Assembly (NCBI GenBank): GCA_001785615.1
Contig: MFUG01000013.1
Span: 11,006-75,005, forward strand
Length of the DNA: 64,000 nucleotides
Source: Candidatus Nomurabacteria bacterium RIFCSPHIGHO2_02_FULL_42_19
GTDB lineage: Bacteria; Patescibacteriota; Minisyncoccia; Phycocordibacterales; UBA9973
Reading direction: 5' to 3'
Of this stretch, positions 431 through 60,554 are shown piece by piece (within the stretch, counting starts at the first letter, position 1; every line of letters begins with the position of its first letter). Position numbers and translations under genes: made by a program. The notes under the pieces are model-generated. The model searched no databases. It was not told the DNA's origin and saw only the letters and a list, made by a program, of their open reading frames with translations.

Positions 431-1900
431 TTAGTCCTTGCGCAAAAATAACGGCTGGTCGGGTTTTTTGTTTTCTTTTATCAGTTTTTTAAGCAACTCA
501 TTAGTGCTAGGCATTATCGGATTTAGCATTCTAGCTATTTTATACAAGCGGATAACAGCGGAAGAAATTAATTCTTTCCCCTTTTTTTCGTCTACTTTTA
601 TAACCTTAAACGGTTCCGTTTCTTGAATAAATTTATCAAGTTCACTGATTTCTTTCCAAGTAAAATCCACTGCTTTATTAATTTCAAATTTATCCAAGTA
701 ATCTTTCCATTCTTGCGGGATAGAATGCTCTGGAATTTCTGGACACTTGTTTAAATACTTCTCGGATAAAGTTAAAATACGACTTACCAAATTCCCCAAC
801 CCATTTGCCAGATTCGCATTGTATGCCTCTTTAAACCTTTCCATAGTAAAAGGACTGTCTTCAAATGAAGAAATCTCACGCAAAAGAAAATAACGCAATG
901 CGTCTGTGCCATATTCTTTTACAACTTCTATAGGATCTATGCCATTCCCTAGGGATTTAGACATTTTTATTCCGCCCTCGCCGGTGATAAAACCGTGATA
1001 AACAATTGTGTCTGTAGTTGGCATTCCAACCGACATCAACATTCCCTGCCACATTACGGATTGGAATTTAACCATGTCTTTCCCAGCTATCTGAATTTTT
1101 TCTCCATTGACCCAGAACTTTTCAAAAAGACCCTCCCCTCCTGCCAGAGGAGGGGAGAGGGGATGGTGGGAGTCGGGCCAGCCCAAGGTGGAAAGATAAT
1201 TTACAAAAGCGCCAAACCATACATACATTACTTGGGCATCGTCCCCTGGTATCGGCACCCCCCAGGAAAAGCGTTTCTTGTCGCGGGAAATAGAAAAGTC
1301 CTCCATGCCTTCGGATACGAAATCAATTGCTTCACGCCGACGCCACTCTGGAAAAATTGCTTTTTCTTTTGCGAGATAATCTAAAAGCTGCTTTCTGTAA
1401 TTTGCTAATCTAAAAAAATAATTTTCTTCCTCCACCATCTCGGGCTTTTTATCCGGATGAAGTGAGCATTTTCCTTCCATTAGATCTTTTTCAGTAATAA
1501 ATTTTTCACATCCTACGCAATAAAGCCCTCTGTATTTTTTTTTATAAATATCACCCTTAGCGTCACAAAGACGCCAAAATTCCTGCGCTGCTTTCACGTG
1601 TTCTCCGCTTGTGGTTCTGATAAAATTATCGTAGGAGAGATTTAACACATCTTTCAGGCCCAGAAACTTCTCTGCATAAAAATCCACATAACTTTGCACA
1701 TCCTTGTCTTCCTTTAAACTTCCCTCCCAGATTTTTTGACCATATTCGTCTGTGCCAGTACTGAAAAATACATCGCGTCCTACTAGCCGCTGATATCGTG
1801 CCATCGCATCCGCTTGCACAAGCTCAAGCGCAAAGCCAATATGAGGATCCGCATTCACATATGGAATCGTGGTCGTAATGTAAAAACTATTTTTTTTCAT
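431..1900 (-). CDS. metG: Methionyl-tRNA synthetase
   Basis: Class I aaRS with the P-Y-V-N-A-D-P-H-I-G-F HIGH-type motif, KMSKS (KMSKSLGN) and a Zn knuckle (CVGCEKF). Confidence 0.9.
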   Translation of the reverse strand: MKKNSFYITTTIPYVNADPHIGFALELVQADAMARYQRLVGRDVFFSTGTDEYGQKIWEGSLKEDKDVQSYVDFYAEKFLGLKDVLNLSYDNFIRTTSGEHVKAAQEFWRLCDAKGDIYKKKYRGLYCVGCEKFITEKDLMEGKCSLHPDKKPEMVEEENYFFRLANYRKQLLDYLAKEKAIFPEWRRREAIDFVSEGMEDFSISRDKKRFSWGVPIPGDDAQVMYVWFGAFVNYLSTLGWPDSHHPLSPPLAGGEGLFEKFWVNGEKIQIAGKDMVKFQSVMWQGMLMSVGMPTTDTIVYHGFITGEGGIKMSKSLGNGIDPIEVVKEYGTDALRYFLLREISSFEDSPFTMERFKEAYNANLANGLGNLVSRILTLSEKYLNKCPEIPEHSIPQEWKDYLDKFEINKAVDFTWKEISELDKFIQETEPFKVIKVDEKKGKELISSAVIRLYKIARMLNPIMPSTNELLKKLIKENKKPDQPLFLRKD

Positions 1901-1903
1901 TCG

Positions 1904-2995
1904 TTATTTATCGTTGGTTTTGGTTAAAATTTTACGTTTCTCAATATCATTCGAGAGCTCCACTACCAGAATAGACAAGGGAATCGCCAATACTACTCCC
2001 CAGAAAGAGGCAAGTTCAAAACCAATTAAAGCGGCAAGAATTATGACGATAGGTGAAAGCCCTACCACTTTTTTGATAATTAAAGGAGCAAAAAGGAAGA
2101 CCTCAAATTGATGCACAATCAGGTAGGCCCCAGTTACCATTAGCGCGCTGCCAAGACCGCCGGAAAGATAAGAAAAGGAAATAGCGGGTATCAAAGCGAC
2201 GAGAATTCCATAGGGGATGAGTTCCATTATGCCGGCAATAATAGCCAGGAGCAGGGCATACTGTACCCCTAACAGAGAGAGCGTCAGATAAATCAGAACA
2301 CCGACGACCAAGCCAAGCAGAAGCTGACCCTTAACCCATAAAGCAATTTTGCGACTGGAGCGATTCCATAAATCCACCACATAATCCTCGTGTTTTATGG
2401 GTAAAATAACTCTTAAAAAATTTTCTATCCCTCTTTCTTGAATTGAAAGATAAAAAGAAATAAGAATAATCATGCCTACGTTGAAAATACTGCCGAAGGC
2501 CACGGAAAGTGTTTGGAAAAATCCACCGGAGAGATTTTCGATGAAGGCCTTGGACACCGCAGTCAGCGATGAAAACGATAAATTGTGTGATAAATTTGCG
2601 ACAATATCTTTGGCTCCAGAGAAGGCCTCGTTTTGAAAATAATTTAAAAAGTACACACCGGGAACGTAGGAAGAAAGGGCCGAGGAAAAATTATAAACTT
2701 CGGTGATTAAAAGTGGGGCGAAAAGATAAAATATTCCAGCCAGGGCAAGGATGGATACAGCGTATAAAAGAACTATGCCGAAAATTCTGCCGATTTTTAT
2801 TTTGCGGAAGTGAGGAACCGCTGATTCCACGAAAGAGGCAATGATAATAGAGGTTAGAATAATAAGGATTAGGTCTCGTAAGAACCAAAGCAAAAAGATG
2901 CCAAGAAGAACCAGGGCAGCTCGAACCATTGTCCCGGTAGTTATGGAAAAATGGGCTACATCATTTCTTTCTTGCATAGGAACATAATACCACAA
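1904..2995 (-). CDS. AI-2E (PerM/UPF0118) family membrane transporter
   Basis: 363 aa, about 8 TM helices. The hydrophobic pattern and length match AI-2E family permeases. No catalytic motif. Confidence 0.55.
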   Translation of the reverse strand: MWYYVPMQERNDVAHFSITTGTMVRAALVLLGIFLLWFLRDLILIILTSIIIASFVESAVPHFRKIKIGRIFGIVLLYAVSILALAGIFYLFAPLLITEVYNFSSALSSYVPGVYFLNYFQNEAFSGAKDIVANLSHNLSFSSLTAVSKAFIENLSGGFFQTLSVAFGSIFNVGMIILISFYLSIQERGIENFLRVILPIKHEDYVVDLWNRSSRKIALWVKGQLLLGLVVGVLIYLTLSLLGVQYALLLAIIAGIMELIPYGILVALIPAISFSYLSGGLGSALMVTGAYLIVHQFEVFLFAPLIIKKVVGLSPIVIILAALIGFELASFWGVVLAIPLSILVVELSNDIEKRKILTKTNDK

Positions 2996-4367: not shown

Positions 4368-4970
4368 CTAACAAGGTAGGTTAAAAACTTCTCGAATGCG
4401 CCTATCATTTTCAATACTGTCAGCAATAACATAGAGGAGATCCTTGCCAATTTTAAAGTCTGCCTTGAGAAGCATTACCAGATCTTCGCAGTCGTAGGGG
4501 AAAATCCACACACTATCTTGTAAATAATGAAACCCGATTTGCTTAAGTGTGCTACGTATTTTTTCACGCGTATTTTTTCTTTTCTCTTTTACGTCAAATA
4601 TAAGCATTCTCCACTTCCCATCCCAGCGCCTTGGCCTCTCGAATTGATAATCCTTTAATTCAAATTGGCGAAGCTTCGCCTCTCCTTTTGGGGTCAAACG
4701 AGCGAAGGTTCCATTTTCCGTTTGCTCAAAAATTATCAATCCTTCATTTTTTAGCCTATTCCAGGATCGATTAACAGAATATTTACCGAATTTATTCTTC
4801 ATAAATTGCGGCTCGATTTGAGCTAGAACTTTCGTCATCTTTGGGGCTACTAAAGCAACACTCAACCCACCCAAGGCAAATACTGTGCTTAAAATTGCCT
4901 TTTGAATATTTGCCTTTTTTGAGCGTTTTCTTGAAGCTTTTTCTAACTGCCCCATGTAATCATAATACAC
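4368..4970 (-). CDS. PaaX-like small protein: N-terminal winged-HTH-like region plus C-terminal Cas2/VapD-like motif. Paralog 1 of 4
   Basis: C-terminal motif WRMLIFDVKEKRKNTREKIRSTLKQIGFHYLQDSVWIFPY follows the Cas2 pattern hhYD-x-R-R-x-L-x-G-x-Q-SVF. Paralogous to 17789..18352, 9235..9708 and 27139..27636. Alternative start GTG at 4970 or ATG at 4955. Confidence 0.5.
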   Translation of the reverse strand: MYYDYMGQLEKASRKRSKKANIQKAILSTVFALGGLSVALVAPKMTKVLAQIEPQFMKNKFGKYSVNRSWNRLKNEGLIIFEQTENGTFARLTPKGEAKLRQFELKDYQFERPRRWDGKWRMLIFDVKEKRKNTREKIRSTLKQIGFHYLQDSVWIFPYDCEDLVMLLKADFKIGKDLLYVIADSIENDRRIREVFNLPC

Positions 4971-4971
4971 T

Positions 4972-5008: not shown

Positions 5009-5037
5009 CAAGTTTTATAACTTGCCTTTATATAATT

Positions 5038-5295: not shown

Positions 5296-6532
5296 TATAT
5301 TTTACTAGGTCAGAAACCTTTATTCGCTCTTGTAGGGCAGTATCGCGGTCGCGGATGGTGACAGTATCGTCTTTCAGCGTGTCAAAATCAATGACGATGC
5401 AGTAAGGGGTGCCGATTTCGTCCTGCCGACGATAACGCTTGCCGATATTGCCGTTATCGTCCCAGGCCACGCGACCGAATTCGGCCTTGAGGGGCGCATA
5501 GACCTTGGTATTGGCATATTCTACTAACTCGGGTTTATTCTTTAGAAGTGGCGAGACGGCGCAAATAACTGGCGCCATGTTGGGTTTAAACTTGAGATAC
5601 ACTCTGGGGCCGTCCTTTTCGCCTGCCCCGTTGGAAACTTGCTTTCCTTCGGGGTCTTCTTTATAAGCAGAAAGAAGAAGCGCGAGAACTGCGCGATCCA
5701 CCCCGAAAGTTGGCTCAATTACATGTGGTACTATTTTTTCATTTTTCTCTTCATCAATGTAATCAAGCTTATGATTACTTAAATCAAAATTCGTTCGGTA
5801 AGCCAGGCCGAAAAGTTCTTTACGTCCGAAAGGATAATCGAATTCAAAGTCAGTCGTTCTTTTGGAATAATGTGCTCTCTCCCCATTCGGAACCTCAAGT
5901 TCGTGCACTTTTGTCATATCAATGCCTATTTCTTTCATCCATTCAAGCATTTCATCCTTCCAGTATTCAAAATATTTTTCCCATTCGGATGCTCTTACAA
6001 AATATTCTATTTCCATCTGTTCAAACTCACGCTGACGAAAAAGAAAATCGCGAGGAGCGATTTCATTTCGGAAGGCCTTACCTATTTGGGCAATACCGAA
6101 AGGTAGCTTGGGATGATGGGCGTCAATTAGGTTCTTGAAATTTACAAAAATCCCCTGTGCGGTTTCCGGGCGTAAATAGGAGGTAATAGCTTCTTCGCCT
6201 GCCCCCACTTGGGTTTGAAACATTTCGTTAAATTTTTTACCCTCGGGGGTTGTGCTTAAAAACCCGGCTACGTGACCCGAAGCAACCCAAACTTTTGGAT
6301 TAAAAATGATGGAAGAATTCAGGCCATACATATCACGCCTGGAATCAACAAACTTTTTCCACCAAGAATTTTTTATATTGTTTTGCAACGCAAGACCGTA
6401 ATGTCCATAATCGTAAAAACCGGCCAGTCCTCCATAAATTTCCGAACTCTGGAAAACAAAACCGCGCCTTTTGCAAAGCGAAACAATTTTCTCCATTAGA
6501 TTGTCATCAGTTTTTGACATATTTTTATTCAA
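5279..6532 (-). CDS. glyQS: Glycyl-tRNA synthetase, dimeric class II type
   Basis: The N-terminus FQSSEIYGGLAGFYDYGHYG and the class II core motifs match GlyRS (alpha2 type). Confidence 0.85.
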   Translation of the reverse strand: MNKNMSKTDDNLMEKIVSLCKRRGFVFQSSEIYGGLAGFYDYGHYGLALQNNIKNSWWKKFVDSRRDMYGLNSSIIFNPKVWVASGHVAGFLSTTPEGKKFNEMFQTQVGAGEEAITSYLRPETAQGIFVNFKNLIDAHHPKLPFGIAQIGKAFRNEIAPRDFLFRQREFEQMEIEYFVRASEWEKYFEYWKDEMLEWMKEIGIDMTKVHELEVPNGERAHYSKRTTDFEFDYPFGRKELFGLAYRTNFDLSNHKLDYIDEEKNEKIVPHVIEPTFGVDRAVLALLLSAYKEDPEGKQVSNGAGEKDGPRVYLKFKPNMAPVICAVSPLLKNKPELVEYANTKVYAPLKAEFGRVAWDDNGNIGKRYRRQDEIGTPYCIVIDFDTLKDDTVTIRDRDTALQERIKVSDLVKYIEEKI

Positions 6533-8456
6533 CTACCCGGTCTCCGTTCGACGGGAAAGCGGAATCATTTACCAGCCGAGTATTAAGCGATGCTTTATTA
6601 ACTCTGATATCCAGATTAGCAAAATCGTCGTGCCCAGTCAAAGTTGCGTCGTTTATAATAACAGGAATGGTATTAACTTGAGACAACGAAGGGATAAAGG
6701 TGACAACAAAAGAGACCTCCTTGCCGGTAGTTGTGATCCCTGTTCCCCTCGGAATATTGCCTATATTCCAGATTATTTCTTTGGTTGAAGAATTATAAAT
6801 TAAATCCTCCGACGAAGGAGAAAATTTTCCTGCAAAATTTATCCACGGGGGAAGGGTAGAGCGTACGGACGCTTTAGAAATATTGTTGGCGGTATTAGAA
6901 AGAGACCACGCCACAGTATAAGTCGTTTCTTCTTCGGCCTTGGGGGGAATAGCTCCGGTATTCTTAAAAGGTCCGGAAAAATAAAGCGCTTTCGCGGCCA
7001 GTCCCGTATCAGAAATAATTTTAATTACCGAGGATTCTTTGTTGCCCAGGTCTTTGGATTCATACCCGGCGAGCGTTTGCTGCCCTGAAATATCTACGTC
7101 AATATTTATAGAAGGGTTAGCCAGCATGCCACTTGAGGCAGAAAATAGGGAGAGGGAGGAAATAGAAAAACTCACTGATCCAGAATCCCCCGGGTCTATT
7201 TCCTTAAATCTACTAATGGAATTTTTGTCCCAAATAATTACATCTTCGGATGAATTATAAAAGCCCTGCTTGGCAAAGATGGTTTTGCGATTGACCGCAT
7301 TCCCAGAAATTTTCGCGCGAATTTCCAGATCACTTATCTTGGTATCCAAGTTGTTGGTAAAACGAACTTCGGCATTAATGGGGGTACCAGAATAGCTAGA
7401 ATATTCTCTTTGACTTGCACCATCGATAAAAAACTTCGCCTCAATAAGAGGTTTTTTAATAACGACTGTCTGCTTTAAGGAGTTGAAAACGGTGCCAATA
7501 GTGGACTTGTCGGCAGCGGATTGTGACCCGCTCCAAACGTGAAAGGTTTTTTCTTCACCGTCAAAAACATCCAATATCTTGCCTTCGACGTAAATATTTT
7601 TGTCTGCCCCAGGAGCCAGATCCCCTAAGTCCCAAATATTATTGCCAAATGAGGGGGCCGGCGTTGCCTTGGTAAATTGAAAACCGACAGGATAATCAAG
7701 CCGCAGAAGCATCTTGGCCGCCGGCCGCGTAGCGTTCAGTGTGGCTTTTACTTTCAGGGTCATATTTTGATTTGGGCTTACGGAAGTCGGAAGATCCAGT
7801 GAAAGATTTATCGGGGTAGAGTTTATAGTTACTTCATATGATTTTTCCTTTACGAAAATAGCGTTGGATCCTTCTACCCGATACTCAATAGAAATTTTAA
7901 TGGGGCGAATACTGCCTTGTTCGCCAAAAAGAACTACTCTTACATTTTCATTTCTAATTACTCCCGGCGGAATAGTGCCTAGGGACTCGCGGATGCGTTC
8001 TGTTTCCGACCCCAGATTGACTTCTGAATTTTTGGGGTATTCCACAACCAGGTCGACAAGTTCCAGCGCCGAGGTATTTCTATTGGTTATACCAATCTGT
8101 AACGGTAGTTCTTCTCCGCCAGCAGTAAAAGCATTTCCCAGAATAGAGATATCTATGTTGTTGTTGGAAACGGTATTGCTTTCAACAAAAAACATGTAGG
8201 AGGCATATCCGACAGCCAAAATAAAAAAACCTACAGAAAAAATGAAAAACTTCTTAAAGAGAGACGTTTTTATAAAAAATTTTTCCCCTAAATCTTGCGC
8301 CACCCGTCCGCTAGTCCTCCAAACGTCCGGAACGTCCTTCGTTTCTAAGGGAGTAAAATTATCTCGATGCTCTACCTTTGTTTTATAACTTTTACTGAAA
8401 AGTTTGCTTTTTAGTTCTTCTATTCTGTTTAATTTATCTCCATCGCCTGATACCAT
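6525..8456 (-). CDS. Large membrane-anchored surface protein with a beta-rich repetitive ectodomain
   Basis: 643 aa. Cytoplasmic N-terminus of ~70 aa, then a single TM helix (FFIFSVGFFILAVGYASYMFF), then a long Ser/Thr/Asn-rich extracellular region. No recognised catalytic motif. Confidence 0.5.
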   Translation of the reverse strand: MVSGDGDKLNRIEELKSKLFSKSYKTKVEHRDNFTPLETKDVPDVWRTSGRVAQDLGEKFFIKTSLFKKFFIFSVGFFILAVGYASYMFFVESNTVSNNNIDISILGNAFTAGGEELPLQIGITNRNTSALELVDLVVEYPKNSEVNLGSETERIRESLGTIPPGVIRNENVRVVLFGEQGSIRPIKISIEYRVEGSNAIFVKEKSYEVTINSTPINLSLDLPTSVSPNQNMTLKVKATLNATRPAAKMLLRLDYPVGFQFTKATPAPSFGNNIWDLGDLAPGADKNIYVEGKILDVFDGEEKTFHVWSGSQSAADKSTIGTVFNSLKQTVVIKKPLIEAKFFIDGASQREYSSYSGTPINAEVRFTNNLDTKISDLEIRAKISGNAVNRKTIFAKQGFYNSSEDVIIWDKNSISRFKEIDPGDSGSVSFSISSLSLFSASSGMLANPSINIDVDISGQQTLAGYESKDLGNKESSVIKIISDTGLAAKALYFSGPFKNTGAIPPKAEEETTYTVAWSLSNTANNISKASVRSTLPPWINFAGKFSPSSEDLIYNSSTKEIIWNIGNIPRGTGITTTGKEVSFVVTFIPSLSQVNTIPVIINDATLTGHDDFANLDIRVNKASLNTRLVNDSAFPSNGDRVVE

Positions 8457-9201: not shown

Positions 9202-9241
9202 AACATAACACTACATCGCGACCGCGATAGATTGTTATGTT
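9202..9241. repeat. Family-3 palindromic repeat, copy a (aacataacactacatcgcgaccgcgatagattgttatgtt)
   Basis: Imperfect palindrome with outer arms aacataaca/tgttatgtt and core tcgcgaccgcga. Overlaps the stop of ORF 9235..9708. Shares the core and outer arms with 9718-9753. Confidence 0.75.
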
Positions 9242-9708
9242 GCTTTTCTAACCCTAAACACACGGATGTTTTCATAAATACCAAGAACTCTCAACCTCTC
9301 ACCAAATTCTTTTGGTAGAGGACCATGACCAAGCCATAAGCTTTTATGAATCATCTCAAAATCCCAATATTTTATCTGATTGCGGAGCCAGTCCCTAGTT
9401 TTTTTCTTGGTTTCAGGTATATCAAAAGATAGCAACACTCTTTCGGTCTTGCCTGGATAAATATTTTTCATCACCGAGTTATTCTTTACGGCAAGTTTAG
9501 CTAAATCCTCTCGACAAATATGAATGGTCTCGCCGTCTGTCTCAACAACCCCCTGCTTTCCTAACCGATAAATGCGTTGCCGAAAAGCTTCCGGAGTTAG
9601 GTTTTTTTGCCTTGCTCGCATTCTTTTCCACAACATCTTCCTGTATATTTTTGTTGAACGAGAAGACAGTAAAAATGCTATTAAGTGATCTACTATCGTC
9701 GGTTGCAT
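9235..9708 (-). CDS. PaaX-like/Cas2-like-motif small protein, paralog (subfamily B)
   Basis: C-terminal motif VLLSFDIPETKKKTRDWLRNQIKYWDFEMIHKSLWLG. Closest to 27139..27636 (shared FDIPE-K-R-WLR-I-KS-W-G-PLP-EF). Confidence 0.5.
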   Translation of the reverse strand: MQPTIVDHLIAFLLSSRSTKIYRKMLWKRMRARQKNLTPEAFRQRIYRLGKQGVVETDGETIHICREDLAKLAVKNNSVMKNIYPGKTERVLLSFDIPETKKKTRDWLRNQIKYWDFEMIHKSLWLGHGPLPKEFGERLRVLGIYENIRVFRVRKAT

Positions 9709-9717
9709 GGGTATATT

Positions 9718-16795: not shown

Positions 16796-17221
16796 CTATT
16801 TATGCCCAGTGCTTCCCTCACGCCCGACTCCGCGTACCGTCTCCGAGAGTTCCTGTATCTCTACAATATCACAATGTTCAAACTTTTGAACCAACATTTG
16901 GGCTACTTTATGCCCCTTCTCAAGCAGAATATCTTTACCGGAAGTGTTCAAAAAATTCATAATGATTTCGCCCCTATAGCTGGAATCTACAACGCCACCC
17001 ATAACTTTTAAACCAAGATTAAAGGAAATGCTTGATTTATCCCAGATCAGGCCCACGTGACCTTCCGGAATTTCTACGGCAATCCCTGTATGCACCTCAT
17101 TTTGTTTGCCGGCCGGGAAAATAACATCTTCTACCGTATAAAAATCCATTCCTGCGTCCCCGGGATGCCCATGCGTCGGCACCTTTGCATTCTTATGTAA
17201 TTTTTTAACTTTGATTTTCAT
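16796..17221 (-). CDS. dut: dUTP diphosphatase
   Basis: 141 aa with trimeric dUTPase motifs (GDAGMDF, VDSSYRGEI, RGVGREGSTG). Confidence 0.9.
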   Translation of the reverse strand: MKIKVKKLHKNAKVPTHGHPGDAGMDFYTVEDVIFPAGKQNEVHTGIAVEIPEGHVGLIWDKSSISFNLGLKVMGGVVDSSYRGEIIMNFLNTSGKDILLEKGHKVAQMLVQKFEHCDIVEIQELSETVRGVGREGSTGHK

Positions 17222-17347
17222 TATTACTCTTTTATGCGCTCGTGAATTCCCTTTAAAAAATCATCGGGTTTTTCTTTCAATTCTTTTTTTAATTCTTCTT
17301 CTGAAAACCATTTAACTTCGGCTACTTCTTCTTTTCTAACTTTAAAT

Positions 17348-17704
17348 TCAGATATTTTTTTTATCTAAAACAATACTAAACTGCTGTACGAAATAATTAT
17401 AATTTGTTCTTTTTCTTAATCTAGCCCCTGAAACTAGTTGTATGTTTGTAAGTCCCAGTTCTTCCTCCGCCTCTTTTATTATGTTCGATTCGTAAGTTTC
17501 ACCCTCTTCTACAGTTCCCGCTACTGCTGGCCCCCATTTCCCCGGATCATGACTTTTACTAAAAGCCCGCCGTGCAAGTAAAATTTCACCTTTACTATTT
17601 CTAATCCATAAAGATGAAACACGATAAATGGCATTGGCGTCTTGGTCGTTTCTCTCTCTATATTCTATAACATCGTCGTTCTTATCCACTATCGGAATTT
17701 TCAT
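17348..17704 (-). CDS. NUDIX hydrolase
   Basis: Nudix box GTVEEGETYESNIIKEAEEELGL. Confidence 0.8.
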   Translation of the reverse strand: MKIPIVDKNDDVIEYRERNDQDANAIYRVSSLWIRNSKGEILLARRAFSKSHDPGKWGPAVAGTVEEGETYESNIIKEAEEELGLTNIQLVSGARLRKRTNYNYFVQQFSIVLDKKNI

Positions 17705-17746
17705 ATTATTATCTAATTATATATCTTTCCCCCACAAAAACCAACC

Positions 17747-17780
17747 TAGCATTTGCTTACGACCGTTAGTAAATGCTAAA
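17747..17780. repeat. Family-2 palindromic repeat, copy a (tagcatttgcttacgaccgttagtaaatgctaaa)
   Basis: Stem tagcattt/aaatgcta around a cgaccg core. 8 nt upstream of the start of ORF 17789..18352. Near-identical to 18355-18388 and related to 60557-60590. Confidence 0.85.
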
Positions 17781-17788
17781 ATGGTTCA

Positions 17789-18352
17789 ATGAGTCAAAAT
17801 ATTAAACGGCTAGGGACTACGCAACGAAAGATTCTTCTGCTTCTTCTGGCAGGGCTCGCGTTGGGTTTAACCAGATCGCCGAAAAAGCATTGGTGGATTT
17901 TAAAACAGATACCGAAAGAATGGAAAAAGATAAACCGACAAGCCCTGGAGAGGGCGATTAATTCTCTTTATGTTTCTCATCTAGTGCAGAAGGAACAACA
18001 CAGAGATGGCACAACCACTTTTGTCTTGAGTGAAAATGGTAAACGAAGGGCCTTGCGATTTAATATCGATAAGATGGAAATCAAAAGGCCGGGTAAGTGG
18101 GATAATAAATGGCGAGTGGTGATGTTTGATATTCCAGAAAAATTAAGGAGGTTGCGAGATTCTTTACGTTTACATTTCCGTGAAATAGGTTTAATTGAAC
18201 TCCAAAAATCAGTTTTTGTATATCCTTATCCATGCAGTAAGGAAATCGAGTTTATCTTGGAATTCTACAATACAAGAAGGCATGTGCGTTTTCTCTTGGT
18301 CGAAAAGATAGATAATCAGCTTCATTTAATGAAAAAATTTAATCTGTGTTAG
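17789..18352 (+). CDS. PaaX-like small protein (wHTH + Cas2/VapD-like motif), paralog (subfamily A)
   Basis: C-terminal motif WRVVMFDIPEKLRRLRDSLRLHFREIGLIELQKSVFVYPY. Aligns with 4368..4970 (RP-KWD-KWR...FD...Q-SV...PY-C). Confidence 0.5.
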   Translation: MSQNIKRLGTTQRKILLLLLAGLALGLTRSPKKHWWILKQIPKEWKKINRQALERAINSLYVSHLVQKEQHRDGTTTFVLSENGKRRALRFNIDKMEIKRPGKWDNKWRVVMFDIPEKLRRLRDSLRLHFREIGLIELQKSVFVYPYPCSKEIEFILEFYNTRRHVRFLLVEKIDNQLHLMKKFNLC

Positions 18353-18354
18353 TT

Positions 18355-18388
18355 TAGCATTTGCTTACGACCGTTTGTTAATGCTAAA
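18355..18388. repeat. Family-2 palindromic repeat, copy b (tagcatttgcttacgaccgtttgttaatgctaaa)
   Basis: 32/34 identical to 17747-17780. Begins 2 nt after the stop of ORF 17789..18352. Confidence 0.85.
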
Positions 18389-18396
18389 TAAGTTAT

Positions 18397-18993
18397 TTAT
18401 TTAGGTTTAATTTTAAAGTGTTTGATGATTATGGTGGCGACCTTTTTGGGGGAAAAATGGGTATTGTCTATTATGAGATTATTTTTCACTGGAGCAGCTA
18501 ATTTCCATTCGCTATCACTTAAATATTCTTTTAGGATTTTTTTATTCCTTAATTTTCCAAAATTTTTCCTTGATTCGTCTGATACTCTTTTAAAAATTTC
18601 TTTGGGGTCGGCCATTAAATGCACAAAACAAGCTCTTCCTCCACTTTTTTCAATAATTGATTCAATTTTTTTCATATACATTGGGTCAGTTAAACTTGTT
18701 TTAGATACATAACTGGATGAATAAGTGTGGGTCGTTACAACATTTATTTTCGCTTCCGCTATTTCTTTAAATACAAAAAATCTAATGTTCTCGGTCACTC
18801 TGTGCAAATGTATATTACCCCTCTCAAAAAGTTGCCGGGCTAAATCATGGGTGTGGTGGTTATGAAAAAATTTGTAATTAATTAGTTTACGAAGTTTTTT
18901 GGCAACGGTATACTTACCCACCGCTACTGGACCGTAGATAACTACCATAGTAAATAAAGGGTTTTTATTTGAGAATTTTTTTAATTTTCTCAT
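18397..18993 (-). CDS. P-loop NTPase / small-molecule kinase-like (AAA_33 / zeta-toxin-like fold)
   Basis: Walker A YGPVAVGKYT near the N-terminus. ~200 aa. No further specific motif. Confidence 0.4.
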   Translation of the reverse strand: MRKLKKFSNKNPLFTMVVIYGPVAVGKYTVAKKLRKLINYKFFHNHHTHDLARQLFERGNIHLHRVTENIRFFVFKEIAEAKINVVTTHTYSSSYVSKTSLTDPMYMKKIESIIEKSGGRACFVHLMADPKEIFKRVSDESRKNFGKLRNKKILKEYLSDSEWKLAAPVKNNLIIDNTHFSPKKVATIIIKHFKIKPK

Positions 18994-19654
18994 AGATTTT
19001 TTGGTGAATATTCTCTCTTGAGTCCATTTTATTCCCCACGATACACTCTATTTTTATCCAGCCCTTTTGTGTCTTGGTAAGCCAGAGCGCGCTTTTGCGT
19101 GAATTTTCTAAAAATTTTACATCTTTTTCATGGACATCTTTCTTTTTACCTAAATAATTTCTACTTCTACTTTTATTCCGCTCACGAATGAGTTTCAAGA
19201 CAATAGGGATAGGCACGTTCAGATAAAATACAGCATCCGGCTTTGGAATTTTGAAAACACTGTATTCCATCTCCGCCAGCCATTTTATAAATGCTTCACG
19301 CTTCTTGGTATTTGTAATTTTTCCTCCCTGGTGAATCTGGTTTGCGCTCGCGTACCTGTTGGCGACTATAATATTTCCTTCTTTGAGCCACTTTTCAATT
19401 TTATTCTTTGATTCAAAACGATCCGCCGCATATAAAACCGAGGCAATCTTCGGGTGAATCTTCACGAAATTATAATATTGCTCGGAAAGGCAGTGCCCGA
19501 TGAATTTTCCGAAAAAGTTTGAATAGTATTCCGGGAAGTCCACTACTTTCACCTTCCGGCCATCTTTCTTCAAATGCCTAATCAAAAGATTGGTCTGCGT
19601 CGCCTTGCCGCTCCCGTCCGTACCGTCTATTACTATGAGTTTACCTCTTTTCAT
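18965..19654 (-). CDS. tmk: Thymidylate kinase
   Basis: LIVIDGTDGSGKATQ P-loop, DRY-like region, and a lid typical of dTMP kinase. Confidence 0.85.
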   Translation of the reverse strand: MKRGKLIVIDGTDGSGKATQTNLLIRHLKKDGRKVKVVDFPEYYSNFFGKFIGHCLSEQYYNFVKIHPKIASVLYAADRFESKNKIEKWLKEGNIIVANRYASANQIHQGGKITNTKKREAFIKWLAEMEYSVFKIPKPDAVFYLNVPIPIVLKLIRERNKSRSRNYLGKKKDVHEKDVKFLENSRKSALWLTKTQKGWIKIECIVGNKMDSRENIHQKIYEKIKKILK

Positions 19655-20049
19655 ACTAATTTTCTATCCAATAACTCTTGAATATATTTGTCCATCGGCT
19701 CAAGTTTAGACAATTCACCTCGAGTAAGCCAGCGATGTTTTGAATGCTCTTCAGATAATTTTACTTCACCTATAGCTTCTCCTGCATAAGTAAGACAAAC
19801 AACATGTTTATCGGCCTTCAAAATATCCTGCGCCAGAAGAAGTTTAGGTTCGCCTGTAATAGAAAGTCCGGCTTCCTCCATCACTTCTCTTTTTAAGTTA
19901 TCGAGCAGAAAAACTCCAGGGGTAATTCTCCCGCCAACTATGTCCCATTTTGCTCCCACTTCCGGATACTTCTCTGGATTCCTCTGCAATAGTAAAAACT
20001 TTCCTTCTTTATTATTTAACAAAATTTTTACCCCGACTTGCAGTTCCAT
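19651..20049 (-). CDS. NUDIX hydrolase (MutT-like)
   Basis: Degenerate Nudix box GGRITPGVFLLDNLKREVMEEAGL. Confidence 0.65.
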   Translation of the reverse strand: MELQVGVKILLNNKEGKFLLLQRNPEKYPEVGAKWDIVGGRITPGVFLLDNLKREVMEEAGLSITGEPKLLLAQDILKADKHVVCLTYAGEAIGEVKLSEEHSKHRWLTRGELSKLEPMDKYIQELLDRKLV

Positions 20050-20052
20050 AAA

Positions 20053-20349
20053 TTATTTTTGGTATGAATGCCTAAGTTCAACTTTATCTTCATTTAAGCT
20101 ATATTCATATATATAGCGCACAGCGGGAGGTTGTTGTTCAACTCTAAAAAGAATACTTAGTTGTGGTCTCCCGTTACCAGAATGATTAAAAATAACATGG
20201 TCACAATCGCTTGCTTCAGGAAATCTTTCTTTTACTTTTTCGACAGGAATCTTCATCAGGCGAGAGAGCATCTCTAACCCCCTTTCTAAATCTAAAGATC
20301 TACTAAATTCTAGATTGATCCCCCACAATGGTGCTCCTTTTTCTATCAT
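20053..20349 (-). CDS. Hypothetical protein
   Basis: 98-aa ORF filling the gap between glyA and the NUDIX gene. No motif recognised. Confidence 0.3.
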   Translation of the reverse strand: MIEKGAPLWGINLEFSRSLDLERGLEMLSRLMKIPVEKVKERFPEASDCDHVIFNHSGNGRPQLSILFRVEQQPPAVRYIYEYSLNEDKVELRHSYQK

Positions 20350-20355
20350 AAATTT

Positions 20356-21600
20356 TTAGACAAACTTTTTCGGTATCGGAAACTTTTTTGCTAAGGTCTT
20401 AATTTCTTTGTGAATGGATTCTTTCATCTTTTTATTGTCTTTATTCTTGAGCGTTTCAATTAAAAGTTCTGCCACTAGTTTACATTCTTTTCCCTTGAAC
20501 CCGCGCGTAGTTATCGCCGGAGTGCCGAAACGGATCCCAGATGGGTCCAGCGGTTTCCTGGTGTCCCCTGCAATAGAATTCATGTTGAGAGTGATACCTA
20601 CCTCATCTAGTACCGTCTGCGCCTCTTTGCCTGTCACCCCAAGCGAGCCGAAAACATCGGCCAAAATCAGGTGATTATCCGTTCCGCCACCAATCATACG
20701 AATTTTATTTTTGCGTAAAACCCCTTCCATCGCTTTAGCATTTTTTAGGACCTGTCTTGCGTATTTTTTATACTTCGGTGTCATCGCCTCACCGAAGGCC
20801 ACCGCTTTCGCCGCGATAGTGTGCATGTGCGGGCCACCTTGAATACCGGGGAAAATTGATTTATCAATTTTCTTGGCAATTTCTTCACTTTCGCGGGTTA
20901 AAATTATGCCTCCACGTGGACCACGAAGTGTCTTGTGAGTGGTAGAAGTGATAACATCAAAGCCGTCATCAAATGGATTACGAAGTTCTCCCGCAGCAAT
21001 GAGCCCGGCAATGTGCGCCATGTCTGCCATAGTGATAGCTCCGACTTCGTGAGCAATTTCCACAAATTTTTTATAGTCCAGTGTGCGCGAATAGGCAGAA
21101 AACCCGGCAATAATTAATTTCGGCTTGGTCTCAAGCGCCACTTTTCGCATGTCTTCATAATCAATCTCTCCCGTATCCGGATTTTTCATTTTGTAAGTGA
21201 CGAATTTGTAAATTTTAGCAGGCAAAGTCATCGGGTGGCCATGAGTTAGGTGCCCACCGTGCGACAAATCCAGGCCGAGCACTGTGTCCCCCGGCACAAG
21301 AAGCGCCGCATACACTGCCAAGTTTGCCGGAGCGCCGGAATGCGGCTGAACATTGGCAAATTTACACTTAAAAAGTTTACAGATGCGTTCAATTGCCAGG
21401 CGTTCCACTTGATCTGTAAAATCCTGTCCTCCATAATAACGGCGGCCGGGATACCCTTCGGAATATTTATTGGTAAAGACCGAACCGTTCGCTCTCAAAA
21501 CGTCTTCCGATACATAGTTCTCCGATGGAATGAGTTCCAGCCCCTCTGCCTGTCTCTTTTCTTCCCCTTTGATCAACTTCTCTACTAGTTTATCTCGCAT
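20356..21600 (-). CDS. glyA: Serine hydroxymethyltransferase
   Basis: PLP-lysine region TTHKTLRGPRGG. SHMT-typical length. Confidence 0.9.
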   Translation of the reverse strand: MRDKLVEKLIKGEEKRQAEGLELIPSENYVSEDVLRANGSVFTNKYSEGYPGRRYYGGQDFTDQVERLAIERICKLFKCKFANVQPHSGAPANLAVYAALLVPGDTVLGLDLSHGGHLTHGHPMTLPAKIYKFVTYKMKNPDTGEIDYEDMRKVALETKPKLIIAGFSAYSRTLDYKKFVEIAHEVGAITMADMAHIAGLIAAGELRNPFDDGFDVITSTTHKTLRGPRGGIILTRESEEIAKKIDKSIFPGIQGGPHMHTIAAKAVAFGEAMTPKYKKYARQVLKNAKAMEGVLRKNKIRMIGGGTDNHLILADVFGSLGVTGKEAQTVLDEVGITLNMNSIAGDTRKPLDPSGIRFGTPAITTRGFKGKECKLVAELLIETLKNKDNKKMKESIHKEIKTLAKKFPIPKKFV

Positions 21601-22462: not shown

Positions 22463-23059
22463 ATGAAAAAATTTGAAGAAATGAAATTTAATATCCCAGA
22501 GCTTAAGGGCATTTCCAAGAAAAATATTGATGAGCACCTGAAGCTTTACGCCGGCTATGTAAAAAATGCAAACTTGATTACAGATAAAATTGGAGAATAC
22601 ATGGCAGACCCGGAGAAAAATATGTTTGTACTAGGAGAGTTGCAAAGAAGGTTTAGTTTTGAATTTAACGGCATTAGGAATCATGAATATTATTTTGCTT
22701 CGCTTGAAGGTGGGGCGAAGCCGCTTTCCGCAAATTCTAAACTTAAAACTGCTATAGAGAATCAGACACCTTCTTTTGACGCCTGGCTGGTTTCATTCAA
22801 GTTGCTGGCTATGACTCGCGGTGTGGGCTGGGCAGTACTCGCCTGGGATCATGACACCGAGCAATTCCTCCACATTTGGGTAGATGAGCAACACCTGGGT
22901 CAATTAAACGGGGCGTGCTGGATACTGGCTATTGATATGTGGGAGCACGCTTTTGTTTACGACTACCCTACCTCGGAAAAGAAAAAATATATTGAGGCAT
23001 TTTTTGAAAACCTAAACTGGGAAGTAGCAGAAGAATATTTTACAGAACTTCAGCATTAA
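22463..23059 (+). CDS. sodA: Fe/Mn superoxide dismutase
   Basis: GWAVLAWD and DMWEHAFVYDY (Asp/His metal ligands) plus the NHEYYF region. Start moved to the internal ATG at 22463 to avoid the 60-nt overlap. Confidence 0.8.
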   Translation: MKKFEEMKFNIPELKGISKKNIDEHLKLYAGYVKNANLITDKIGEYMADPEKNMFVLGELQRRFSFEFNGIRNHEYYFASLEGGAKPLSANSKLKTAIENQTPSFDAWLVSFKLLAMTRGVGWAVLAWDHDTEQFLHIWVDEQHLGQLNGACWILAIDMWEHAFVYDYPTSEKKKYIEAFFENLNWEVAEEYFTELQH

Positions 23060-55346: not shown

Positions 55347-56021
55347 ATGGGAAGACCCCAAAGAACTGACGTTGGTGGATATGTGTACCATGTATTAAAT
55401 CGAGCTAATGCTCGGATGACTATATTTAGTAATGATAAAGAATATCAAGGCTTTGAAGCAATACTTTTCGAAGCAATGGAAAAATTTAAGATGAGACTCA
55501 TCGCATACACTCTGATGCCAAATCATTTTCATTTAGTTCTGTATCCAAAATATGAGGGCGAGATAAAAAAGTTCATGCACTGGCTAACCCTTACCCACAC
55601 TCAGAGATGGCATGTATATACAAAAACAATAGGCCATGGTCATTTATACCAAGGAAGGTATAAATCATTTCTAGTAGAAGAGGATTCATATCTATGGGTA
55701 CTGCTTGCGTATGTTGAAAGAAATGCATTACGCGCAAAATTAGTAAAATCTCTCAAAGACTGGAAATGGTCAAGCTATTACAAAAGATTATATGGCACAG
55801 CTCTGCAGAAAAAATTACTGGCCACTGATAGCATTGCTTGGCCTGATAATTACGACAAATTACTTTCTCTAACTGAAGAAAAAGAAAAGTTAGAAACTAT
55901 TAGAAACTCTGTCAACAGAGGAAAACCTTATGGTGGTAATAGTTGGACCGGTAAAGTTTTGAAAAAGTTTGGTTTAGAAATAACAGAAAGAAAGAGAGGA
56001 AGACCAAAAAAAGGTTCCTGA
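55347..56021 (+). CDS. REP-associated tyrosine transposase (RAYT) / IS200-like Y1 HUH transposase
   Basis: HUH motif LMPNHFHLVL and the catalytic Tyr region GRYKSF...YLWVLLAYVERNALRAKLV parallel E. coli RayT/YafM (LPEHMH ... YxxxxDYIxxNPV). Confidence 0.75.
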   Translation: MGRPQRTDVGGYVYHVLNRANARMTIFSNDKEYQGFEAILFEAMEKFKMRLIAYTLMPNHFHLVLYPKYEGEIKKFMHWLTLTHTQRWHVYTKTIGHGHLYQGRYKSFLVEEDSYLWVLLAYVERNALRAKLVKSLKDWKWSSYYKRLYGTALQKKLLATDSIAWPDNYDKLLSLTEEKEKLETIRNSVNRGKPYGGNSWTGKVLKKFGLEITERKRGRPKKGS

Positions 56022-58121: not shown

Positions 58122-58939
58122 TAAAAATCGGGGACTATAATACAATAATGTCGGACAGAAATATATTCAACCAAATTGTATATACTCCCCTTTCTGAGGC
58201 GCTTCGACTTTTGGATGAACGCAAAAAGAATAAGGAATTGACAGCAAAAGTGGAAAAATTACTAAAAGGGGATATTCCGGAATTTTTAAAAAAGAAGAAC
58301 TGTGCAATTCTTTTTAGACAAGTTGCTACCCCAAACTATGAAACTAGACGATTTATATCTTTAGCAAAAGAAAATGACTTGCATCCGGTAATTTTTGAGT
58401 ATCATGATGATAAATTCACTTCTAATAATGAATTCAAGCACTCACTGGGGCAGTTACATATACAAAAAAAGAATAGAAAAAATAGTAATTTTAGTGTTGA
58501 AAAGATTACAATTATTGATTTTAACTTACATAACGGCAAAAAATTTAAAGATATTAAAACTTTATGGCTAGAACCGCTTGTTGATTTTCATAAAAAATTA
58601 TTTTCTGTTCACGACTATGGTGTTAATGATTTTTATTTATACAACGCCTCAGATTGGTTTAAAAAAAATGGAGGAAAGGCAATTGATTACTATGTCAATC
58701 TACTTTTATTATTTACTTGTTTTGGAATTTTATTTGAAAATTTTTTGACGTCAAAAAACTCCGAAGGCGAATTTACAAAGGGCATAGTATTGCCAGCGAT
58801 AGAAAAAGTGATTAACTTAGTCGGTGTTAAGCCGCTAATAATACCGATTGAACCCCTAGATTTAGAAACAGATATCTTTTGGGTTCATCATTTATTAAAA
58901 GTCAAGGAATTAATTCCAAATTATAAAAATGATAGATGA
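58118..58939 (+). CDS. Hypothetical protein co-transcribed with the histidine kinase
   Basis: 273-aa ORF overlapping its upstream and downstream neighbours by 4 and 11 nt. No motif. Confidence 0.4.
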   Translation: MIKIGDYNTIMSDRNIFNQIVYTPLSEALRLLDERKKNKELTAKVEKLLKGDIPEFLKKKNCAILFRQVATPNYETRRFISLAKENDLHPVIFEYHDDKFTSNNEFKHSLGQLHIQKKNRKNSNFSVEKITIIDFNLHNGKKFKDIKTLWLEPLVDFHKKLFSVHDYGVNDFYLYNASDWFKKNGGKAIDYYVNLLLLFTCFGILFENFLTSKNSEGEFTKGIVLPAIEKVINLVGVKPLIIPIEPLDLETDIFWVHHLLKVKELIPNYKNDR

Positions 58940-60554
58940 AATTTTAAACATTATAAATACTTGTTTTTTAACGACTAGCGCGTCAAGGCCAATAGCTTTT
59001 TACTCCCACTTAATTCCGGTAGTTTTATCAACTTTATTGGCTTTTTTAGTATTTATTAAATCTAAACGCACTCTTTTTTCTACTATTTTTTTGACTTTTA
59101 TTTTTGTCTTTTCTCTTTGGCTCATTGGCGATCTTGTAATATGGACATCGGATAATTATTATCTAATTTATGCCTTTTGGGCTCCTCTCGATTATATAGA
59201 AATAGTATTTTACGTCCTTGGTCTATATTTCGCTATAGTTTTCGTCAAAAAGTCCGACATATCAACATGGTGGAAAATTGTACTTTTTGCTTTAACCCTA
59301 CCAGCATTTTGGCTCACAATCAGTAGACAGTCAGTAATTGGTTTCAATCAGCCAGTCTGCGAAGCATTTAACAATGATTTTCTGGGTCAATATAAACTTG
59401 CCCTAGAGGGCATAATTTTAATATTTATCCTCATTTATGCAATTACTCCATTTTTCAAAAAGCTTCCCTGGAAGAAAAAGTGGCCGGACTTAGTGGTGCT
59501 TGGTTCTATGTTTTTATTCCTATCATCCTTCGGCATTACCGAATATCTGGCTTCCATCACTGGATATTATGAAATGAACTTATACAGCTTATTTCTCTTG
59601 CCGATATTCCTGGTAGCTATTATCTACTCCGTATTTGAACTTGATATTTTTAACGTTCACATTTTGGGCACGCATTACTTGGTCGTCGGGCTTATGGTTC
59701 TAATGGGCGGACAACTCTTCTTTATCACTGACACAACTAACCGATTTCTAACCATTTTAACAATCATCTTGATTACCATATTGAGCGTTATCCTTTTTAG
59801 GAACCTGAAACGCGAGTCCGACCAGAGAGTACAAATCGCGAAACTTAATATTGACCTCCAGAACCTTATCAAGCAGAGGGAGTCCCTCGTGCACCTCGTT
59901 ACCCATAAAGTGAAGGGTTCATTTACCCGTTCTAAATATATTTTTGCCGGGATGTTGGACGGAACTTTTGGCGAAGTGTCCCCAGCCCTTAAAAAAATAG
60001 CCAAACAGGGGCTGGAGTCCGACAATGCGGGCATCCAAACGGTTGATTTGGTCTTGAACGTTTCCAATATGCAGACCGGGACGGTTAAATACGAAATGAA
60101 ATCAATTGACTTAAAAGAACTAGCGCTAAAGGTAATCGCCGACAAGAAAGTCCACGCAGAGGAAAAAAATCTTAAAATAGAAAAAGATGTTAAAGACGAT
60201 AATTACTCCATCGCCGGGGACGTCTTCTGGCTTAAAGAAGTAATGAGCAATTTGATTGACAACTCTATCAAATACACCAAGGAAGGAAAAATAACGGTAG
60301 GTCTGGAAAAGAAGCCCGGCAAGATAATATTCTCGGTCAAAGACACCGGCCTAGGCATAACCGACGAAGATAAAAAGAATCTCTTTACCGAAGGCGGGCG
60401 AGGCAAGGACTCGGTTAAAATAAACGTGGACAGCACGGGCTACGGGCTCTTCTCGGTAAAACTAATCGTGGATGCTCACAAAGGCCGGGTCTGGGGAGAG
60501 TCCGAAGGACCCGGCAAGGGCTCGCAGTTCTTCGTGGAATTGCCGGCAGTATAA
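58929..60554 (+). CDS. Membrane sensor histidine kinase (orphan; no response regulator adjacent)
   Basis: ~8 N-terminal TM helices, an H-box-like VTHKVKGS, and HATPase_c G-boxes (DTGLGI, GTGYGL, GPGKGSQFFVELP). Confidence 0.7.
   Translation: MIDEILNIINTCFLTTSASRPIAFYSHLIPVVLSTLLAFLVFIKSKRTLFSTIFLTFIFVFSLWLIGDLVIWTSDNYYLIYAFWAPLDYIEIVFYVLGLYFAIVFVKKSDISTWWKIVLFALTLPAFWLTISRQSVIGFNQPVCEAFNNDFLGQYKLALEGIILIFILIYAITPFFKKLPWKKKWPDLVVLGSMFLFLSSFGITEYLASITGYYEMNLYSLFLLPIFLVAIIYSVFELDIFNVHILGTHYLVVGLMVLMGGQLFFITDTTNRFLTILTIILITILSVILFRNLKRESDQRVQIAKLNIDLQNLIKQRESLVHLVTHKVKGSFTRSKYIFAGMLDGTFGEVSPALKKIAKQGLESDNAGIQTVDLVLNVSNMQTGTVKYEMKSIDLKELALKVIADKKVHAEEKNLKIEKDVKDDNYSIAGDVFWLKEVMSNLIDNSIKYTKEGKITVGLEKKPGKIIFSVKDTGLGITDEDKKNLFTEGGRGKDSVKINVDSTGYGLFSVKLIVDAHKGRVWGESEGPGKGSQFFVELPAV

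Follow-up and report, generated by a model that had tools for sequence, protein, structure and literature searches.

A short PaaX-family gene bracketed by candidate recognition palindromes in a Candidatus Nomurabacteria genome

Why should a single small gene be framed on both sides by nearly the same imperfect palindrome? The question is raised by positions 17747–18388 of a 64,000-nucleotide stretch of Candidatus Nomurabacteria bacterium RIFCSPHIGHO2_02_FULL_42_19 (contig MFUG01000013.1 of assembly GCA_001785615.1, forward-strand positions 11,006–75,005). This whole stretch is called the window below, and all positions are counted within it. An earlier note on the window had described there a gene with a Cas2-like motif between two copies of a palindrome termed family 2. 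Its positions for the two copies are correct, and so is their identity of 32/34. The spacing also holds, as the open reading frame starts 8 nt past the upstream copy and its stop lies 2 nt ahead of the downstream copy. The upstream copy falls, as proposed, in a divergent promoter region, within the 84-nt spacer common with the NUDIX gene 17348..17704 on the minus strand. The features of the locus, which together with its gene is referred to as a module, are as follows.

17716–17744, minus strand: inferred sigma-70-type promoter of the NUDIX-dUTPase-ArgRS operon, with −35 TTGGTT at 17744–17739, a 17-nt spacer and −10 TATAAT at 17721–17716
17747–17780 (core 17747–17778), plus strand: upstream family-2 copy (TAGCATTTGCTTACGACCGTTAGTAAATGCTAAA), from its sequence the proposed operator on the gene's own promoter
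17774–17782, plus strand: extended −10 element (TGCTAAAAT), whose hexamer TAAAAT (17777–17782) ends 6 nt ahead of the ATG at 17789
17789–18352, plus strand: gene for a 187-aa short PaaX-family protein (Pfam, AlphaFold2, Foldseek)
18355–18388, plus strand: downstream family-2 copy (TAGCATTTGCTTACGACCGTTTGTTAATGCTAAA), 2 nt past the stop, with a left arm of type T8 and a right arm of type A8 (subtypes defined below)

The reading that we favour, and to which we give a probability of roughly 0.58, is that the product of the framed gene would bind the palindromes as its cognate sites. The two copies at the locus are in direct orientation and follow one plan: outer arms TAGCATT and AATGCTA, an inner segment that is partly paired, and a centre, CGACCG, that is not palindromic. 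With 13 Watson-Crick pairs and one G·T pair out of 15, the upstream copy is the better palindrome of the two; the downstream copy has 11 and one out of 15. Chance or low complexity as the origin of the palindromes was rejected, as 100 dinucleotide-preserving shuffles gave no match at up to three mismatches. The downstream copy is without a −10 element (GCTAAATA) and lies between the convergent 3' ends of the gene 17789..18352 and of the kinase gene 18397..18993. A second, AT-rich palindrome at 18378–18410 (TTAATGCTAAATAAGTTATTTATTTAGGTTTAA) overlaps both the right end of this copy and the stop of the kinase gene. The window contains three family-2 copies, the third of which is more diverged and was absent from the earlier note.

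60557–60590, plus strand: solo family-2 copy of subtype A8 (TAGCATTAGTGCGCGACCGCTTACTAATGCTAAA), 2 nt past the stop of the histidine-kinase gene 58929..60554

This solo copy is situated between convergent genes, and L134 (labels of this kind denote related loci) has an orthologous solo after its kinase gene.

Of the computational evidence that these sites are read by the protein, we consider the strongest to be a covariation between its N-terminus and the subtype of its palindrome. Two subtypes were distinguished, T8 (TAGCATTTGCT...AGYAAATGCTA) and A8 (TAGCATTAGTG...TTGTTAATGCTA); the upstream copy in the window is T8, the solo is A8, and the downstream copy is a chimera of the two. Alignment columns of 38 distinct module proteins were compared with the subtype of the upstream copy. 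All columns that predict the subtype lie in residues 2–13, where KRLGxTQRK goes with T8 and PR[IM]GNxKKK with A8. Residue 12 is Q in 8/8 T8 proteins and K in 30/30 A8 proteins and carries the full 0.74 bits of the label, and no column outside residues 2–13 exceeds 0.36 bits. Palindrome subtype and arm class agree without exception (8/8 and 28/28). This coupling is not explained by whole-gene phylogeny, since outside residues 1–20 the two classes are not separated; one T8-class protein, for example, has 93% identity to a protein of the A8 class. The downstream copy, 600 bp away, tracks the arm class as well (6/8 vs. 0/28, p = 1.4e-5). Specificity appears to be set by this short N-terminal arm.

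What kind of protein is it? The Cas2-like motif of the earlier note is real, but it belongs to the Pfam domain PaaX_M, and the gene is not Cas2. PF20803 (PaaX_M) matches residues 102–174 with 72 bits against a cut-off of 24 (E = 4.3e-20), and three other paralogues in the window also pass this model. The Cas2 models remain below their cut-offs (PF09827, 15.8 vs. 23.8 bits; TIGR01573, 22.6 vs. 24.5 bits). A true Cas2 or CRISPR remnant was rejected on these scores, together with the absence of a CRISPR array from the 64-kb window and of cas1 from the genes adjoining the module (NUDIX, kinases, dUTPase), the other window genes not having been scanned for cas1. For full-length PaaX the model TIGR02277 has a cut-off of 264.55 bits, of which the protein reaches 23.9; its sequence stops at residue 187, with no Pfam match to the PaaX_C effector domain. 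It also has no match to the IS200-like Y1 transposase domain PF01797.

The protein is laid out as a basic N-terminal arm (residues 6–13, KRLGTTQR), a winged-helix-like part (about 35–95) and a Cas2-fold PaaX_M domain (about 102–183). AlphaFold2 predicted the ferredoxin-like C-terminal domain confidently (predicted local distance difference test, pLDDT, >82), and a helix at 50–62 followed by a beta-hairpin at 66–80 (pLDDT 64–71) is consistent with a winged helix. A sequence search of solved structures gave nothing meaningful, so that a structure-based search was needed. Using Foldseek against PDB, we found E. coli W PaaX (8a39) as the top match, followed by Cas2 proteins, Rv0674 and VapD; the alignment to 8a39 covers 134 columns of the 305-residue structure and reaches past the Cas2-fold part. 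The protein is 100% identical to one Candidatus Nomurabacteria protein of the Candidate Phyla Radiation (CPR), and its orthologues are 73–86% identical. D114 (the Asp of the Cas2 FD motif), R123, R127 and S141 are invariant even across paralogues that are only 26–31% identical to the query. On its sequence and predicted fold, the protein is a regulator-like member of the PaaX family.

Gene and palindromes form a conserved module, as the earlier note had supposed. A scan of one genome per species yielded 15 complete orthologues, found through the protein, and both copies are present in 15/15 of them as well as in at least ~30 further metagenome modules. The upstream palindrome ends 10 nt ahead of the ATG in 14/15 orthologues, and the copies are 603–609 bp apart (608 in 11/15). 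Over all modules, including those among the metagenome matches listed, this spacing is 603–636 bp with always exactly one gene between the copies. The arms AGCA/TGCT and the central CG..CG are invariant in both copies of all 15 orthologues. Site orientation is fixed relative to the gene in 55/58 cases, and the central dinucleotide is occasionally flipped (L008, L013, L138).

The common context, ArgRS-dUTPase-(NUDIX)-[gene]-(deoxynucleoside-kinase-like)-Tmk-(NUDIX)-SHMT, is found in 11/15 genomes and in at least 24 modules overall. Within it the module gene is alone on its strand, inside a conserved cluster on the opposite strand; a link of the regulator to deoxynucleoside triphosphate metabolism is possible. 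No paa (phenylacetate) catabolic genes are among the neighbours, which are nucleotide-metabolism-type genes, ArgRS and SHMT. In the window this region extends over 15080–21600, where the module lies antisense in a nucleotide-salvage-type cluster with a P-loop kinase-like protein and a second NUDIX gene, and the cluster is conserved across Nomurabacteria. Other modules stand after a PilB-like ATPase gene, after DnaE and in at least eight further contexts; L001 and L007 are two copies of the module in different contexts of one genome.

The upstream copy overlaps the proposed promoter of the gene. Its right arm contains the TG and the first two hexamer bases of the extended −10 element. The geometry is common among the 58 window genes: in 25 of them a TAnnnT hexamer, usually extended by TG (TGnTAnnnT), ends 5–8 nt (mostly 6) before the ATG, and only four have a Shine-Dalgarno-like sequence. 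Examples in the window are 1904..2977, 6525..8456, 20356..21600 and 22463..23059. Judging by these numbers (25 against four), the local norm would be to transcribe genes without a leader from extended −10 promoters, and this seems to be the rule for the first genes of operons. Because its hexamer ends 6 nt before the ATG at 17789, the mRNA of 17789..18352 is probably leaderless too.

Upstream copies of other modules repeat this design: they end in AATGCTA followed by TAAT, which gives TGnTATAAT with the hexamer 6 nt before the ATG (24–29 of 30 copies). Downstream and solo copies end in GCTA followed by AAT and have no usable −10. On the other strand, the −35-like TTGGTT of the divergent promoter is 2 nt from the left end of the upstream palindrome, and this flank is conserved in orthologues and in L131, a locus with an empty site. 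A consensus promoter scan of the window called neither of the two proposed promoters, as the scan needs a good −35 and that of the gene itself is weak. The earlier note had also suggested a transcript bounded by the hairpins; this is unlikely on the 5' side, given a −10 inside the right arm of the upstream palindrome and an mRNA that probably has no leader.

A precedent is provided by E. coli PaaX. It recognises inverted hexamers that are set far apart, TGATTC(N27)GAATCA, and acts as a repressor at its own promoter through steric hindrance of RNA polymerase (PMC9493321). PaaX (PDB 8a39, 3L09) is the best structural match and has the PaaX_M Cas2-fold middle domain in common with our protein. 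The operators are similarly long, TGATTC(N27)GAATCA in PaaX and AGCAWT(N18)AWTGCT here, and own-promoter repression, inferred here from the −10 overlap, would be a further likeness. The differences are also clear. PaaX has ~305–316 aa, whereas the present protein has 187 aa and no C-terminal effector domain; the PaaX proteins of E. coli and Pseudomonas respond to phenylacetyl-CoA, whereas no paa genes are nearby here; and the present sites are found on both sides of the gene and as solos at 3' ends, with many paralogues per genome (four in 64 kb). CRISPR Cas2 has in common with our protein the ferredoxin-like fold and the N-terminal beta1-alpha1 'FD[IV]P' motif, which here is fused to a putatively DNA-binding N-terminal half.

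Considering that both the site and the proposed dimer are tripartite, the conserved parts of the one can be matched to the parts of the other. A dimer would span the whole 32-bp site, with the winged helices on the invariant outer arms AGCAWTA and TAWTGCT, the N-terminal arms reading the variable inner positions 8–12 and 21–25, and the Cas2-fold dimer over the invariant centre CGACCG. Autorepression suggests itself because the upstream site overlaps the −10 and PaaX acts at its own promoter: once bound, the protein would repress its gene in the way of E. coli PaaX at the Px promoter, and may also affect the divergent NUDIX-dUTPase-ArgRS operon. The downstream and solo copies might be bound by the same protein or by paralogues and mark boundaries of transcription units, as a roadblock or an insulator.

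To what extent do the solo copies fit this picture? A pattern scan of metagenome contigs gave at least 120 loci, 80 of them without a PaaX-like gene. The following counts refer to the matches listed, which include at least ~85 solo sites. Among the 56 with a classifiable context, 29 are between convergent genes, 26 between co-directional genes and only one between divergent genes (binomial p = 6e-8 for convergent vs. divergent). In the gene map of the window itself, convergent and divergent junctions are equal in number, nine each. Co-directional solos lie nearly always 0–30 nt past the upstream stop. Counted by gene ends, 104 3' ends and 30 5' ends adjoin solos. Solos often fill the entire convergent spacer. 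Their neighbours are diverse housekeeping genes, no functionally coherent gene set was found beside them, and their positions recur across contigs. The density is ~1 per 60–90 kb, or ~10 per genome; when the index site of each locus is excluded, ~8 extra solos remain in 732 kb, and the 64-kb window has one. Since solos were found by pattern, part of the invariance of their arms reflects ascertainment. The downstream copies of the 15 orthologues are free of this effect because they were found through the protein, and all keep arms and centre.

A classical regulon with promoter targets was rejected for the solos, as only 1/56 is divergent and none lies on a −10 that is 6 nt before the ATG of another gene. 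The earlier note had named generic terminator hairpins at most gene ends as the finding that would speak against its proposal. The solos come close to this in position, at gene 3' ends, but not in number or form, at ~1 per 60–90 kb and with no T-run. Generic or intrinsic terminators were rejected for the same lack of a T-run, and also because the copies are not called terminator-like, number three in 64 kb and are conserved in the sequence of arms and loop. A classic bidirectional intrinsic terminator does occur in the window at 48468–48503 (AAAAACAAAACCCCGAAAGGGGTTTTGTTTTG) and belongs to a separate GC-rich class, with similar terminators in related loci (L015 2496, L075 7698, L125 6840).

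Several observations weigh against our interpretation. A classical repressor would be expected at promoters, yet the only palindrome-embedded promoter found is that of the gene itself, and the solos are at 3' ends. The model is weakest where it gives the downstream and solo copies a boundary function, a tentative proposal that we consider doubtful. Cognate binding is a prediction: architecture, conservation, promoter geometry, dispersal, 3'-end bias, empty alleles and arm-site covariation can be read from the DNA, whereas binding, repression and, above all, boundary function are deduced from them. Since the arm codons are within ~50 nt of the upstream copy, linkage could partly cause the association of the arm with that copy. 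AlphaFold2 gave low confidence (pLDDT <50) to residues 1–46, which include the specificity arm, and a Pfam scan of the protein gave no winged-helix domain. In addition, ~35 bits of sequence conserved at ~10 unrelated loci imply duplicative copying, which an operator does not explain. Non-Watson-Crick positions on the gene-sense strand are 49 G·T vs. 9 A·C, and RNA of the sense strand folds better than antisense; both hint at a single-strand form. The fixed orientation, the flipped central dinucleotides, the occupied and empty alleles and the invariant D114, R123, R127 and S141 are also unexplained by the operator model.

These unexplained features (dispersal, G·T bias, orientation, alleles and invariant residues) keep alive the alternative of a mobile or selfish system whose palindromes are substrates of recombination or transposition, an alternative that we regard as unlikely. 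It could take two forms. Either a cassette of the gene and one palindrome inserts into, or excises from, existing solos by site-specific recombination, like integron attC or Xer/dif, or the palindromes are kept up and spread by their cognate Cas2-fold protein in the manner of repetitive extragenic palindromes (REP) and their associated tyrosine transposases (RAYT).

The loci without the insert for which the earlier note had asked do exist. In L131 the order is Tmk, dNK stop, 23 nt, a single palindrome, 43 nt and the dUTPase ATG, and the left and right flanks are homologous to the upstream and downstream flanks in the window. L138 and L073 have the same empty arrangement in the background of another lineage. 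Occupied and empty alleles differ by exactly the gene (plus NUDIX where present) and one repeat. Such exact presence/absence with homologous flanks on both sides favours mobility; however, the copies are direct repeats, so recombination can excise the gene precisely and leave one solo, and two independent deletions are the simplest account, given that occupied loci occur widely and that each of the two empty ones is related to a different occupied locus. The footprint of such a deletion between the repeats would be identical to that of site-specific insertion or excision.

Other evidence for mobility comes from the distribution of modules and sites. Flank genes are common to modules and solo sites (L061 with L106/L117, L008 with L111, L068 with L065). 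At least eight non-syntenic contexts occur among at least ~45 modules with proteins that are 82–92% identical; contexts are interleaved in the protein clustering, which is star-like at 70–92% identity and does not separate ancient paralogues from recent transposition. The same 32-mer at many unrelated loci requires copying. The orientation fixed in 55/58 and the G·T wobbles on one strand resemble substrates folded as single strands, D114, R123, R127 and S141 are invariant even in divergent paralogues, and several paralogue-palindrome pairs, each with its own brackets, coexist per genome as in RAYT/REP. On the other hand, the main locus is stable (11/15 genomes, at least 24 modules), and no recombinase or transposase domain is in or beside the module: within ±5 kb, in the window and in L001–L019, neither the ORFs as inspected nor partial Pfam scans showed a recombinase. 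An alignment-based scan of 2.9 million viral contigs gave no relatives. Copy number is low, at ~1 per 60–90 kb, and REPIN-type doublets are not the rule; solo positions are conserved between species, as with the histidine-kinase solo of the window and L134. The embedded promoter and the arm-site coupling are explained equally well by regulation.

Known systems resemble the module in part. Like RAYT genes, it is a vertically inherited single gene bracketed by cognate imperfect palindromes that are dispersed extragenically, mostly at 3' ends, and several protein-palindrome pairs coexist per genome. Unlike RAYT, the protein has the PaaX_M/Cas2 fold and not that of an HUH Y1 transposase, there are ~10 copies per genome and not tens to hundreds, and the flanking copies are direct rather than inverted, with a promoter in the upstream one. 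Integron attC and Xer/dif resemble it in a gene bounded by imperfect palindromes, one-site empty alleles and an orientation fixed relative to the gene. They differ in that the module has no integrase nearby, stable synteny and no arrays (none were seen, the spacing of 603–636 bp always holding one gene), and a cassette would hold its promoter inside the site.

Could the palindromes instead act as RNA? Hairpins that terminate or stabilise 3' ends, or serve the protein as an RNA ligand, would make the two-sided bracketing a by-product of neighbouring 3' ends, and this we consider improbable. Downstream and solo copies 0–30 nt past stops, often filling a convergent spacer, would suit such a role. 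The sense strand folds at −13 to −14 kcal/mol (z about −4.5) and the antisense strand at −7 to −10; pairs 13–20 (G-C to A-T) and 8–25 (A-T to T-A) covary; and some solos are perfect palindromes with different inner stems. What is conserved, however, is sequence (arms and loop) and not pairing: the median solo has 4–5 of 15 pairs non-Watson-Crick, and pairs 10–23 and 12–21 are mostly mismatched. No T-run is present on either side, and nothing there is called terminator-like. Co-directional solos are mixed relative to the upstream gene, with ~10 sense and ~16 antisense among the matches listed. The upstream copy would not be transcribed from the promoter in its own right arm, and where the usual synteny holds, its neighbours are divergent genes. 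Conservation of sequence rather than pairing, mixed orientation, the lack of T-runs and the promoter inside the upstream copy thus all disfavour a pure RNA hairpin. At gathering score, no Rfam family, including tRNA, rRNA and riboswitch families, matches either strand of the whole 64 kb, and a known RNA family was rejected on this ground.

Replication-fork barriers offer another comparison. Tus-Ter of E. coli and RTP-Ter of B. subtilis have ~10 sites of 23–30 bp per genome, with the binder gene beside a site that overlaps and autoregulates its promoter, and RTP is a winged-helix dimer. A system of this type, with ~10 asymmetric sites for replication-fork or chromosome organisation and an autoregulated binder gene, would fit the ~10 sites per genome, the conserved intrinsic asymmetry (the AC centre and the left vs. 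right inner arms), the overlap of a site with the gene's own promoter, and the avoidance of promoters and coding sequence by the sites. We nevertheless consider it very improbable: orientation is not significantly related to local GC skew (17 vs. 8, Fisher p = 0.12), several paralogue families with their own sites would be needless for a single fork trap, and, unlike Tus or RTP, the gene is bracketed on both sides by sites in the same orientation. Site orientation was also not significantly related to gene-strand bias. A phage or viral origin was rejected, as the viral-contig scan found no relative.

The arrangement extends well beyond family 2. The window contains four PaaX_M paralogues, three of which are bracketed by their own, different palindromes; besides the module described above, they are as follows.

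4327–5011, minus strand: paralogous module 1, with PaaX_M gene 4368..4970 and copies at 4327–4366 and 4972–5011 that are 90% identical (core ACGCTATAGCGT)
9205–9753, minus strand: paralogous module 3, with PaaX_M gene 9235..9708 and copies at 9205–9240 and 9718–9753 (core TCGCGACCGCGA)
27139–27636, minus strand: fourth PaaX_M paralogue, with an N-terminal stretch that exceeds the cut-off of the Cas2 model TIGR01573

Modules 1 and 3 are probably the other modules to which the earlier note referred. The upstream copy of module 3 ends in TGTTATAAT, 6 nt ahead of the ATG. For the fourth paralogue no clear flanking pair was found at 27139–27636, where there is only a weak palindrome centred on GCCATGGC on the upstream side and TCTGCTATAGCAGA on the downstream side. 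In L131 the orthologous gene (1870..2394) stands between near-identical palindromes, GTGACACA...GCCATGGC...TGTGTCAC, which share 22/22 over the best stretch. Brackets of own palindromes are also present in L015, L019, 7/8 other PaaX_M genes of the fetched loci and 5/7 distant family representatives. The palindromes of all families follow one plan, in which outer arms that differ from family to family and a spacer surround a small motif at the centre (CGACCG, GCTATAGC, CCATGG or CATATG), and solo copies also exist for other palindrome families.

A profile search gave 3,980 clusters at 50% identity (E ≤1e-10), mostly of 180–200 aa. It is conceivable, although we hold it only loosely, that short PaaX_M proteins with their cognate palindromes form an unrecognised and very widespread CPR class, either a self-propagating system similar to REP/RAYT, in which a Cas2-fold protein takes the place of the HUH transposase, or a protein-dependent boundary system. 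Each paralogue would then bracket its own gene and seed ~10 more sites at 3' ends; in the boundary version, these would serve termination or insulation in genomes with leaderless, tightly packed genes. The PaaX family is known, and no description of the bracket arrangement was found in the searchable literature, where the rest of the architecture (the embedded promoter, the 3'-end dispersal, the arm code and the empty alleles) does not appear either.

With four paralogues in 64 kb and ~4,000 clusters, this may be a major DNA-binding family of the small CPR/Patescibacteria genomes. A candidate recognition sequence for each protein flanks its gene on either side, and natural variants (T8/A8, occupied/empty) exist. 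If the 3'-end copies were protein-dependent boundaries or mobilisation substrates, genomes in a large uncultivated branch would turn out to be organised by a new mechanism, and the Cas2 fold would gain a new functional context beyond CRISPR and PaaX. Should the system amount to no more than a repressor that regulates itself and has a few further sites, it would still be a well-defined, testable regulon in organisms whose regulation is scarcely known.

Some minor observations concern palindromes at other positions. In the window, the orthologous position of the L121 solo (41300–41364) has no recognisable palindrome, the sequences being too diverged for a call between decay and absence. In L090 (4034–4109), 12 nt separate a T8 from an A8 family-2 site, the sole tandem pair among the matches listed. 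In L048 (315–381), L082 and L119, a family-2 solo stands beside a palindrome with the core GCTATAGC. Such mixed palindromes in one spacer (L090, L048, L082, L119) resemble mosaic REP clusters.

The window also contains a unit similar to RAYT/REP at 55248–56090, with an IS200-like Y1 transposase gene (55347..56021, PF01797). An exact tandem 43-mer occurs twice at 55248–55333, inverted partners are found at 56006–56033, and short CACCTTTTAC(C) repeats at 56018–56077. Finally, the palindrome TTTCCGCCAGAGGCGGATCCGCCTTGGGCGGA recurs at unrelated coordinates in L006 (723–756), L008 (3847–3880), L042, L061, L102 and L139, where it may be within a conserved gene.

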